Positions 8,713 through 60,386 of a stretch of DNA of 64,000 bases are shown here, piece by piece. The notes beneath the pieces are model-generated. The model did not search any database, was not told where the DNA came from, and saw only the letters and a program-made list of their open reading frames with translations. A program made the position numbers and the translations under genes. Each line of letters starts with the position of its first letter. The first letter of the stretch is position 1. Source of the DNA: Escherichia coli (GTDB lineage: Bacteria; Pseudomonadota; Gammaproteobacteria; Enterobacterales; Enterobacteriaceae); assembly GCF_041886205.1 (NCBI RefSeq), contig NZ_CP169029.1; one strand, written 5' to 3'.

Positions 8713-8797
8713 CCAGGCCTGATAAGACGCGTGATGCGTCGTATCAGGCATCGTTCACCATTGCCGGATGCGGCGTTAACGCCTTATCCGGCCTACG
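8713..8797. repeat. BIME: two REP elements between ypfH and ypfN
   Basis: gcctgataagacgcgtgatgcgtcgtatcaggc and gccggatgcggcgttaacgccttatccggcctac, both matching the REP consensus. Confidence 0.8.
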
Positions 8798-25689: not shown

Positions 25690-25717
25690 CGCTTACCCTG
25701 AATATTCAGGGTAAGCG
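25690..25717. other. 28-bp perfect palindrome downstream of maeB (possible terminator hairpin or operator)
   Basis: cgcttaccctgaatattcagggtaagcg is its own reverse complement; T-run lies 5' of it rather than 3'. Confidence 0.5.
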
Positions 25718-29613: not shown

Positions 29614-29719
29614 TCACCCTGTGTGACGTCGATTCGGGCGTCACGCTCTCTCCTTTTTCATTTTACCTTCTGCGGAGGGTAGGGGGAGCTTTTACCTGAA
29701 ATACGCCACGGAGGCGGGT

Positions 29720-30007
29720 ATGAAACTGGCAGTCGTCACTGGACAAATTGTTTGTACCGTACGCCATCACGGACTGGCGCATGACAAATTGCTGATGGTG
29801 GAAATGATTGATCCACAAGGTAATCCTGACGGGCAATGTGCCGTCGCCATCGACAATATTGGCGCGGGAACCGGGGAGTGGGTGTTGCTGGTGAGTGGCA
29901 GTTCCGCCCGCCAGGCGCATAAAAGCGAAACGTCACCGGTCGATCTGTGCGTGATTGGCATTGTCGATGAGGTGGTGTCTGGCGGTCAGGTAATTTTCCA
30001 CAAATAA
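29720..30007 (+). CDS. eutN: Microcompartment vertex protein EutN (BMV/CcmL-EutN family)
   Basis: 95 aa MKLAVVTGQIVCTVRHHGL...; recognised EutN. Confidence 0.92.
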   Translation: MKLAVVTGQIVCTVRHHGLAHDKLLMVEMIDPQGNPDGQCAVAIDNIGAGTGEWVLLVSGSSARQAHKSETSPVDLCVIGIVDEVVSGGQVIFHK

Positions 30008-33447: not shown

Positions 33448-33731
<284 letters not shown>

Positions 33732-33762
33732 AATAAATAACAACTAACAGGGAGTAAAGGCG

Positions 33763-38676: not shown

Positions 38677-39336
38677 ATGCCAGCTTTAGATTTGATTCGA
38701 CCGTCGGTAACCGCCATGCGGGTGATTGCCTCCGTTAACGCCGAATTTGCGCGTGAACTAAAATTGCCGCCGCATATTCGTAGCCTTGGGCTGATTTCTG
38801 CCGACTCCGATGACGTCACCTACATTGCCGCTGACGAAGCGACCAAACAGGCGATGGTCGAAGTGGTGTATGGCCGCTCGCTGTATGCGGGAGCTGCACA
38901 CGGACCGTCACCGACTGCCGGTGAAGTGCTGATTATACTGGGTGGGCCAAACCCGGCGGAAGTGCGTGCCGGTCTGGATGCGATGGTTGCACATATTGAA
39001 AATGGCGCTGCTTTCCAGTGGGCTAATGACGCAGAAAACACCGCATTCCTGGCACATGTAGTTTCGCGTACCGGTTCTTATCTCTCATCAACCGCCGGGA
39101 TCACGCTTGGCGATCCGATGGCGTATCTGGTGGCACCGCCGCTGGAAGCGACCTACGGCATTGATGCAGCGTTGAAATCTGCCGACGTACAGCTGGTGAC
39201 CTATGTCCCGCCACCGTCTGAAACCAACTACTCGGCAGCATTTTTAACCGGTAGCCAGGCCGCGTGTAAAGCAGCCTGTAACGCCTTTACCGATGCAGTG
39301 CTGGAAATCGCGCGTAATCCAATCCAGCGTGCGTAA
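38677..39336 (+). CDS. eutL: Microcompartment shell protein EutL (tandem BMC domains)
   Basis: 219 aa; recognised EutL. Confidence 0.92.
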
Positions 39337-39348
39337 CGGAGGTTGCCG

Positions 39349-39849
39349 ATGATCAATGCACTGGGATTGCTGGAAGTGGACGGCATGGTCGCCGCGATAG
39401 ATGCAGCGGATGCCATGCTCAAAGCAGCTAACGTTCGTCTGCTCAGTCACGAAGTGCTTGACCCTGGTCGCTTAACGCTGGTGGTGGAAGGCGATCTGGC
39501 GGCGTGTCGTGCGGCGCTGGACGCAGGTTGTGCTGCCGCGATGCGTACCGGGCGTGTCATCAGCCGCAAGGAGATCGGTCGGCCAGACGATGACACCCAG
39601 TGGCTGGTTACTGGCTTTAACCGCCAGCCGAAGCAACCCGTAAAGGAACCCGACGCGCCAGTTATCGTCGCCGAATCTGCTGACGAGTTGTTGGCGCTGT
39701 TAACATCAGTACGTCAGGGAATGACGGCAGGAGAAGTGGCTGCCCACTTTGGCTGGCCGCTGGAAAAAGCCAGAAATGCGCTCGAACAGCTCTTTTCTGC
39801 CGGGACGTTACGTAAACGCAGTAGTCGTTATCGTCTCAAGCCCCATTAA
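39349..39849 (+). CDS. eutK: Microcompartment shell protein EutK (BMC domain plus C-terminal helix-turn-helix-like tail)
   Basis: 166 aa from MINALGLLEVDGMVAAIDAADAM; ACGGAGG RBS 7 nt upstream of ATG 39349. Confidence 0.9.
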   Translation: MINALGLLEVDGMVAAIDAADAMLKAANVRLLSHEVLDPGRLTLVVEGDLAACRAALDAGCAAAMRTGRVISRKEIGRPDDDTQWLVTGFNRQPKQPVKEPDAPVIVAESADELLALLTSVRQGMTAGEVAAHFGWPLEKARNALEQLFSAGTLRKRSSRYRLKPH

Positions 39850-39894
39850 CCTGTCGGAGGTGCCGGGTGTCCTACAACACCCGGCATTAACATC

Positions 39895-40947
39895 ATGAAA
39901 AAGACCCGTACAGCCAATTTGCACCATCTTTATCATGAACCCTTACCCGAAAACCTGAAGCTCACGCCGAAGGTCGAAGTGGATAATGTTCATCAACGAC
40001 AGACAACGGATGTCTATGAACATGCTTTAACGATTACCGCCTGGCAGCAGATTTACGATCAGCTGCATCCGGGCAAGTTTCATGGTGAATTTACGGAAAT
40101 TCTACTCGATGATATTCAGGTTTTTCGTGAATACACCGGTCTGGCGCTGCGTCAGTCGTGCCTGGTCTGGCCGAACTCGTTCTGGTTTGGCATTCCGGCG
40201 ACGCGCGGTGAGCAGGGATTTATCGGTTCGCAATGTCTGGGAAGCGCGGAAATCGCCACCCGCCCTGGTGGCACTGAATTTGAACTGAGCACGCCGGATG
40301 ATTACACGATCCTGAGCGTGGTGCTTTCTGAAGATGTCATCACCCGGCAGGCTAACTTTTTGCATAACCCGGATCGGGTATTACATATGCTGCGTAGCCA
40401 GTCGGCGCTGGAAGTGAAAGAGCAGCATAAAGCCGCGCTGTGGGGCTTTGTCCAACAGGCGCTGGCGACGTTTTGCGAGAACCCGGAAAATCTCCATCAG
40501 CCTGCAGTGCGAAAAGTGCTGGGGGATAATTTGCTAATGGCGATGGGGGCGATGCTGGAAGACGCGCAACCAATGGTGACGGCGGAAAGCATCAGCCATC
40601 AGAGCTACCGTAGATTACTTTCCCGCGCCCGTGAATATGTGCTGGAAAATATGTCTGAGCCGGTGACGGTGCTGGACTTGTGTAATCAACTGCATGTCAG
40701 TCGCCGCACGCTACAAAACGCGTTTCACGCTATTTTAGGCATTGGCCCAAACGCGTGGCTGAAACGCATTCGCCTGAACGCCGTACGCCGCGAACTGATA
40801 AGCCCGTGGTCGCAAAGCACAACGGTAAAAGACGCCGCCATGCAGTGGGGATTCTGGCATCTGGGGCAATTTGCCACGGATTACCAGCAGCTGTTTGCCG
40901 AGAAGCCGTCGTTGACGTTGCATCAGCGGATGCGGGAATGGGGGTGA
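39895..40947 (+). CDS. eutR: AraC-family transcriptional activator of the eut operon, EutR
   Basis: 350 aa; C-terminal AraC-type HTH; recognised EutR. Confidence 0.92.
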
Positions 40948-57401: not shown

Positions 57402-57430
57402 AAAAATGGCGCCGATGGGCGCCATTTTTC
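57400..57430. terminator. Bidirectional rho-independent terminator (pdxK / crr)
   Basis: AAAAAAatggcgcc-gatg-ggcgccatTTTTT perfect stem flanked by A-run and T-run. Confidence 0.85.
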
Positions 57431-60355: not shown

Positions 60356-60386
60356 CAAAAAAGCACCTGAAAAGGTGCTTTTTTAC
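60356..60386. terminator. Bidirectional rho-independent terminator downstream of cysK
   Basis: AAAAAAgcacc-tgaaaa-ggtgcTTTTTT, about 20 bp past the cysK stop. Confidence 0.8.

Follow-up and report, generated by a model that had tools for sequence, protein, structure and literature searches.

The closest described counterparts of the eutK–eutR junction are two genes of bacteriophage T4 whose ribosome binding site (RBS) is split by an RNA hairpin. In gene 38 the hairpin cuts the distance between the Shine-Dalgarno (SD) sequence and the AUG from 22 to 5 nt, and in gene 25 from 27 to 11 nt. Mutations in the stem reduce translation, and the structure is confined to close T-even relatives (PMC3014915, PMC7297116). 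These cases trace to Gold 1988, Nivinskas et al. 1999 and Malys & Nivinskas 2009, which are summarised in the same two papers. The split RBS is not a new class of mechanism, but it is known mostly from these two T4 genes.

The eutK–eutR junction of Escherichia coli resembles them in several respects. The SD is too distant in the linear sequence (34 nt for eutR, 22 and 27 nt in T4) and the gap holds a stable hairpin. Its folding brings the spacing back to 5 and 11 nt in T4 and would bring it back to 8 nt in E. coli eutR (8–11 nt across lineages). In both systems the site is an intercistronic junction, and the structure is found in close relatives while distant ones carry a plain SD. The two differ in that the T4 cases are phage structural genes, whereas eutR is a chromosomal gene for a transcriptional regulator. 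Their sequences are unrelated, and the hairpin of eutR exceeds those of T4 in length and stability, reaching 77 nt in one lineage. Function was established experimentally in T4, whereas for eutR we only infer it.

Ethanolamine utilisation is under the control of the master activator EutR, which in EHEC and Salmonella also regulates virulence. The eut literature describes a promoter P1, a weak internal constitutive promoter P2 "preceding" eutR, autoregulation by EutR, and MavR (PMC5821096, PMC8565329). Control at the RNA level also occurs in the eut loci of Firmicutes, through EutV/ANTAR dual-hairpin antitermination and the EutX riboswitch sRNA (PMC5821096). Those systems place dual hexaloop hairpins over a terminator, whereas the eutR junction has a single hairpin and EutR is an AraC-type DNA binder. 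Neither a hairpin nor an unusual RBS at eutK–eutR is mentioned in the eut reviews and recent eut papers.

The eutK–eutR junction in E. coli

The window, that is, the whole 64,000-nt stretch of E. coli chromosomal DNA that was analysed, carries an intact eut operon from eutS through eutR, followed by the convergent hemF. Gene identities agree with the RefSeq annotation of near-identical E. coli genomes. The interval marked in the first-pass annotation, 39850–39894, is the entire 45-nt gap between eutK and eutR. A hairpin with a 9-bp stem and no U-tract had been described there; we confirmed both the hairpin and the missing U-tract, and the perfect stem proved to be 10 bp long (39861–39870 paired with 39877–39886, 6-nt loop). 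The arms gccgggtgt (39862–39870) and acacccggc (39877–39885) are perfectly complementary and enclose the loop cctaca (39871–39876), while U39861–A39886 forms a tenth pair beyond them. The features of the junction, with coordinates in the window, are as follows.

39847–39849, + strand: eutK stop codon TAA, followed by a 6-nt linker and then the SD
39856–39861, + strand: distal Shine-Dalgarno sequence GGAGGU, abutting the stem, at a linear distance of 34 nt from the ATG
39861–39870, + strand: 5′ arm of the hairpin, U-GCCGGGUGU, identified from sequence, fold and covariation
39867–39890, + strand: mini-ORF GTG...TAA encoding MSYNTRH, E. coli-specific, inside the hairpin, 6 nt past the SD
39871–39876, + strand: hexaloop CCUACA, which varies freely among close relatives (cgtaca, catata, tatgta)
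39877–39886, + strand: 3′ arm of the hairpin, ACACCCGGC-A, identified from sequence, fold and covariation
39887–39894, + strand: A/U-rich unstructured tail uuaacauc, 8 nt, without an SD
39895–40947, + strand: eutR coding sequence; its 350-aa product is an AraC-family protein that activates the eut operon

The ATG of eutR (39895–39897) is the first in-frame start past the eutK stop. An 81-nt segment around the hairpin folds with a minimum free energy of −26.3 kcal/mol (z = −3.5), and none of 200 shuffled sequences was as stable. The 26-nt helix at 39861–39886 has −18.6 kcal/mol.

The window contains 8 distinct loci (16 register-variant hits) with perfect hairpins of at least 9 bp and loops of 3–8 nt, whereas first-order Markov simulations gave 2.0 hits on average. 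The remaining ones are mostly terminator-like or REP-like, so that the eutR hairpin is by itself only slightly out of the ordinary. It stands above chance through its conservation with covariation and its exact position between the SD and the start codon.

Among the other perfect hairpins that make up this excess, those at 57403–57428 (aaaatggcgcc...ggcgccatttt) and 60358–60383 (aaaaagcacc...ggtgcttttt) have A-run and T-run flanks and look like bidirectional intrinsic terminators; the former sits between the convergent pdxK and crr. A perfect 32-bp palindrome, cgcttaccctgaatattcagggtaagcg, was also found at 25690–25717, after maeB and upstream of the eutS promoter region. Its 16-nt arms overlap, and in the folded form a 12-bp stem closes a 4-nt loop; the palindrome has a T-run before it and no U-tract after it. 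It may be a variant of the maeB terminator or a protein site near eut P1.

The junction is nearly uniform within the species. The 35-nt segment comprising the SD and the hairpin was matched in 5389 of 5426 complete E. coli genomes, and identity was at least 99% in 5367 of 5390 matching records. No annotated feature was present at this site in the matching E. coli records, and no Rfam family reached its gathering threshold (best scores of 15–16 bits against thresholds of 37–39, E > 4). No sigma-70-like promoter that could correspond to P2 was found, either in a consensus scan of 39300–40300 or in a relaxed multi-species scan of 700 nt upstream.

The predicted duplex of the distal SD with the anti-SD has an energy of −10.8 kcal/mol, versus −1.7 kcal/mol for the best pairing near the ATG (any window ending 2–10 nt from it). 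Among the 40 neighbourhood genes examined, the distal SD of eutR is the strongest located more than 14 nt upstream of a start. A proximal SD is absent from 5 of the 40 annotated genes, or about one in eight. Within the 17 genes of the eut operon it is absent only from eutR and eutT, the latter of which overlaps its upstream gene.

A different arrangement was seen in the eutM–eutN gap (29618–29725, 106 nt). This gap is highly structured, with a hairpin directly after eutM. A CU-rich run, ctctctcctttttc...ccttct, is predicted to pair with distal GGAGGG/GGGGGAG sequences, and a normal proximal SD for eutN follows. By its predicted fold, this structure could tune the EutM:EutN ratio.

Conservation of the hairpin and its flanks

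We compared 63 eutR loci from a scan of one genome per species and 11 further lineages found by protein-guided look-ups. Two sets of records in this collection are likely products of contamination or chimeric binning. One comprises EutR fragments 94–97% identical to E. coli on contigs of 411–457 nt labelled Bacillus hominis or Prolixibacteraceae (L057, L058, L059). The other is a single 'Citrobacter' MAG with both an E. coli-type (99%) and a Citrobacter-type eutR (L001 versus L032).

Conservation in other eut operons was the test set by the first-pass annotation, and the hairpin is indeed kept, with compensatory changes, in Escherichia, Salmonella, Citrobacter, Klebsiella, Pseudocitrobacter, Phytobacter, Intestinirhabdus and several further lineages. 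The distal SD occurs in the same genera (in Klebsiella, the K. oxytoca group), in a Pluralibacter MAG and in four others, and EutR identity among these distal-SD lineages is 77–99%. Their gaps share one layout: the eutK stop, 6 nt, GGAG(G/A/C), 0–1 nt, the hairpin, 8–11 nt and the start codon. The linker between stop and SD stays at 6 nt although its sequence varies (cctgtc, tgaacc, ttaact, caagct).

GGAG is invariant in all 31 aligned lineages, and the fifth base is G in 29 of them (A in ESL0689 and C in P0017). Duplex energies of the distal SD range from −9.5 to −10.8 kcal/mol across lineages, with the two weaker cores, GGAGA of ESL0689 and GGAGC of P0017, at −6.6 and −5.6 kcal/mol. The linear distance to the ATG is 32–37 nt, except for 85 nt in Intestinirhabdus alba (L028). 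Counted across the helix, the spacing is 8–11 nt in 32 of 33 distinct sequences; this figure is approximate, as the width of the helix lengthens the true path. Proximal pairing in the other distal-SD lineages yields only −0.9 to −2.8 kcal/mol. The exception is P0007, where AAGGA lies just 2 nt before the ATG (−4.8 kcal/mol).

The stem keeps its pairing while its sequence varies between genera. In place of the E. coli arms gccgggtgt/acacccggc, Citrobacter has gccgggggcttc/gaagcttccggc, Salmonella gccgggcgtcc/gggcgtccggc, Klebsiella gccgggagcg/cgctcccggt and Phytobacter tgtcggg/cccgaca. In an alignment of 31 distinct sequences, which represent roughly a dozen lineages of enterobacteria, 97.5% of the cells of the nine core pairs were paired, against 29–48% in controls with slid partners. 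Compensatory double changes occurred in six of the nine core pairs, a number reached in none of 500 shuffles. Another alignment, of 25 sequences, gave 95.1% paired cells versus 33–48% in slid controls, with five doubly changed pairs, and from it RNAalifold independently recovered the same helix. Even the otherwise invariant base has changed with compensation, from C–G to U–A in Phytobacter and from G–C to A–U in P0017.

In 18 of 27 sequences the + strand folds more stably than the − strand, since G·U pairs are frequent; the means are −20.5 and −17.2 kcal/mol. In I. alba the two values are −47.0 and −29.3 kcal/mol. As judged from these predicted folds, the bias favours a structure formed by the eut mRNA over a DNA operator. 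Taken together, we are highly confident that selection acts on the eutK–eutR hairpin as an RNA structure of the sense strand.

A covariance model of the motif matched only the eutK–eutR junction within 211 kb, and it scored the Intestinirhabdus locus, which had been held out of the model, at 54.6 bits. The I. alba hairpin (L028, 2410–2500) has expanded to 77 nt and folds at −47 kcal/mol. The extra sequence lies in the upper stem and loop; the base of the stem and both flanks are kept, with GGAGG touching the 5′ base and a 9-nt tail on the other side.

Two other structures were tried and rejected. A long-range helix between 39851–39857 and codons 4–7 of eutR (39906–39913), present in the minimum free energy fold of E. 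coli, is broken by uncompensated changes, with UU mismatches in 10 sequences and GA mismatches in 8. An outer 3-bp GUC/GAU helix around the SD is paired in 87% of cases, but it shows zero double changes and is broken in E. coli itself.

The covariation also bears on whether the element could be a palindrome that binds a protein, as DNA or RNA, or a functionless REP-like selfish insertion that merely persists. The inversion is perfect in E. coli, its GCCGG...CCGGC base resembles that of REP, and one lineage has GCCGGATG...CATCCGGC. Moreover, EutK, encoded just upstream, has an orphan C-terminal nucleic-acid-binding domain (PMC5821096, PMC12487888). However, the upper stem conserves pairing only, unlike the sequence of a protein operator, and the G·U pairs reduce the symmetry of the antisense or DNA form. 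The six compensated positions argue against neutrality. All hairpin lineages have the EutK C-terminal domain, but so do Buttiauxella-type loci that lack the hairpin, and the distribution of the domain is thus uninformative on binding by EutK. We regard a protein site or selfish insertion as improbable.

Membership in the REP family itself was rejected. In a search sensitive to near-full-length copies, the element occurred at a median of one place per E. coli genome, always eutK–eutR. The REP consensus GCCGGATGCG...CTTATCCGGCCTAC is an imperfect palindrome of about 35 nt, and the comparison, made by eye against the true REPs of the eutG–eutH gap and of 8763–8792, showed that the hairpin shares only the GCCGG/CCGGC base. 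REP and BIME elements (e.g. at malE–malF and eutG–eutH) are likewise GC-rich intra-operon palindromes without a U-tract and possible exonuclease barriers. They differ in having hundreds of copies, an imperfect palindrome of ~35 nt and a CTTATC...GGCCTAC signature, whereas the eutR hairpin is single-copy, 24–28 nt long, near-perfect and located inside a ribosome binding site. The eutG–eutH gap (about 33448–33740) holds a BIME in which canonical REP elements, gccggatgcgacgcttgccgcgtcttatccggcctac and an inverted partner, form three pairs in tandem. The gap is about 195 nt longer than in a 98%-identical genome (L065), which indicates that the copy number of REP pairs varies between strains inside the eut operon.

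The first-pass annotation had proposed that the hairpin modulates read-through into eutR. As a transcriptional attenuator or pause site it would lower read-through from P1 and tune the positive feedback. Such a role would suit a GC-rich hairpin directly upstream of an autoregulated activator gene, and a feedback circuit that includes P1 and an internal P2 is documented (PMC5821096, PMC8565329). The hairpin also has the short GC-rich stem and small loop of intrinsic terminators and attenuators, but it differs from them in that neither strand has a U-tract in any lineage. In E. coli the tail reads auuaacauc, attaacatcATG. A U-tract follows the hairpin in 0 of 33 distinct sequences, the 3′ tails being A-rich, and a consensus scan of both strands found no terminator-like site in 39300–40300. 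A conserved alternative structure is absent too, given the rejection of the long-range helix and the lack of covariation in the outer one, and induction raises eutR mRNA along with the remainder of the operon (PMC7617246). Attenuation therefore appears very improbable. Of the earlier suggestion that the hairpin is placed to affect eutR, what stands is a real, functional-looking RNA element; the read-through mechanism found no specific support.

Position of the hairpin in a proposed split ribosome binding site

The invariant GGAGG at the stem, combined with the missing SD near the ATG, indicates a connection with translation initiation. A split RBS is expected to have a strong SD more than 20 nt from the start codon, a hairpin whose closure brings the two to about 5–13 nt, and no alternative SD at the canonical distance. 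Compensatory changes are expected in relatives and a contiguous RBS in distant ones. In E. coli the corresponding values are 34 nt of linear distance, 8 nt with the helix looped out, and −1.7 kcal/mol for the best alternative SD, and both compensatory changes and distant contiguous sites were found.

In the reading that we propose, the eutR RBS is split (non-contiguous), with the hairpin as its structured spacer and the bridging of the SD to the AUG as the hairpin's main role. From the sequence comparison, we consider this somewhat better than an even bet. On the polycistronic P1 transcript, and presumably on that from the weak P2 as well, GGAGGU at 39856–39861 is the only good SD of eutR. Without folding, its distance of 34 nt from the AUG would be too long for it to function. 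The stem-loop at 39861–39886 would fold and protrude from the 30S platform, leaving only the 8-nt A/U-rich tail between the SD:anti-SD helix and the start codon, so that initiation could proceed. Were translation of eutR to depend on the fold in this way, selection would keep the stem by compensatory substitution while the sequences of the loop and upper stem drift. The use of the distal SD by ribosomes through the folded hairpin is what we infer from this arrangement.

Orthologues without a hairpin between SD and start carry a proximal SD. This is the case in Buttiauxella, Hafnia, Morganella, Brenneria, Dickeya and Lonsdalea, and in the last three GGAGG lies at a linear distance of 9–10 nt from the ATG. 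A good SD at the canonical distance, whether linear or across the hairpin, was present in nearly all eutR orthologues examined. The exception is L047, which has a weak proximal site alone (−3.9 kcal/mol).

Three lineages at the edge of the clade combine a junction hairpin with a proximal SD. L072 (EutR identity 78%) has only the proximal SD, L070 (73%) has AGGAG flanking the hairpin on both sides, and Yokenella (71%) has GGAGG on both sides of a degenerate stem. The covariance-model scores of all three hairpins are marginal (E about 1), so that they are no more than possible homologues of the crown-clade hairpin. These lineages count against a split RBS, since they keep the hairpin beside a proximal SD, and their sequences suggest that it may have a role apart from SD bridging. 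Two further points weigh against the proposal. A proximal SD is also missing from the 5 of 40 regional genes noted above, and eutR could therefore be translated from its A/U-rich start independently of an SD. In addition, the crown clade probably represents a single origin, which makes the association of SD and hairpin one retained evolutionary event and not many independent ones.

The edge lineages can be read in two ways. Speculatively, they reflect an insertion into the RBS with later loss of the proximal SD copy; alternatively, the hairpin has an independent role there, most plausibly as a barrier to 3′ exonucleases. The further speculation that the hairpin originated as a small palindromic insertion into the ancestral SD–AUG region, later domesticated, comes from the two intermediate lineages in which SD-like copies flank it. 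Two SDs under selection would produce the same pattern.

If the barrier were its only role, the intercistronic hairpin would block 3′-to-5′ exonucleases after cleavage within eutR. The eutS–eutK message would then outlive the eutR segment and the ratio of EutR to enzymes and shell proteins would stay low, while eutR translation would be SD-independent or weakly aided by the distal SD. A stable GC-rich hairpin without a U-tract, placed between abundant structural genes and a low-level regulator, is consistent with this, as is its persistence alongside a proximal SD in L072, L070 and Yokenella. The eutR mRNA is a target of RNase E and its stability is regulated by the sRNA MavR (PMC8565329), and the same operon has genuine REP/BIME elements at the eutG–eutH junction. 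A barrier alone leaves unexplained, however, why an invariant GGAGG always sits at the stem and why the 3′ tail is held at 8–11 nt. Nor does it account for 33 distinct sequences lacking a proximal SD when hairpin-less orthologues have one. No 3′ end at the hairpin has been reported in data from non-inducing conditions: in the 3′-end supplement of Adams et al. 2021 (PMC7815308 file 2; eut not induced) the eutR entry is antisense only. On this evidence we judge the barrier-only version unlikely. It is worth stressing that the two roles are compatible, and a barrier and a split RBS could coexist in one hairpin. A role in RNA processing, which the first-pass annotation had also raised and which gained no specific support either, may likewise coexist with a translational one.

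In that data set, a significant entry antisense to eutR lies at MG1655 position 2554640 on the + strand, and another is antisense to eutB (PMC7815308). The two entries hint at antisense transcripts across the distal part of the eut operon.

Start codon annotation and possible consequences for EutR

In three groups of database entries, P0015 (L068, 701–722), P0001 and P0016, gene callers start eutR at a TTG or GTG inside the hairpin. The resulting proteins are 356–359 aa long, so that the N-terminus of EutR is systematically mis-annotated, and P0015 represents 2937 member sequences. Presumably these mis-starts arise since the hairpin codons lie at the canonical distance from the distal GGAGG, which would mean that the callers treat GGAGG as the best RBS.

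The same codons raise the possibility of a leader mini-ORF. In E. coli, translation would begin at the GTG at 39867, run for 7 codons to the TAA at 39888–39890 and be followed by re-initiation at the eutR AUG. The GTG lies 6 nt after the SD, the stop is 4 nt before the ATG, and starts of this kind are the ones picked by gene callers. Yet any such uORF exists in only 11 of 33 distinct sequences and has canonical spacing in 6 of them, while a start codon is absent in Salmonella, three Klebsiella, Phytobacter, Intestinirhabdus and E. whittamii. The E. coli GTG is moreover buried in a stem of about −19 kcal/mol. Such coupling is hardly credible, and the sequence comparison suggests that the mini-ORF is probably incidental.

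The reading frames at the junction gave one more observation. The eutK TAA of E. coli is in frame with the eutR ATG, 15 codons apart (39847–39897). Three fusion-like protein entries, P0056, P0078 and P0077, join a BMC domain or an HTH to EutR; they may be stop-codon or indel variants, or assembly artefacts.

Beyond a constitutive spacer, the hairpin might act as a regulated switch on EutR synthesis, gating the positive feedback when its stem is opened or clamped. We hold this to be very doubtful. The fold begins 12 nt past the eutK stop codon, and candidates for the switch could be terminating eutK ribosomes, an RNA helicase, temperature or the C-terminal nucleic-acid-binding domain of EutK. 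The last would be the most striking, as it would couple the output of a shell protein to that of the regulator.

If the synthesis of EutR depends on the hairpin, a layer of control has been overlooked in a well-studied circuit. A clean eutK deletion or an insertion scar near 39850–39890 could then alter EutR unintentionally, which bears on the interpretation of ΔeutK phenotypes, and the start of eutR would be mis-called in thousands of automated database entries. The junction would also represent a well-conserved chromosomal split RBS and would mean that enteric ribosomes routinely tolerate structured inserts of 26–77 nt between the SD and the AUG.
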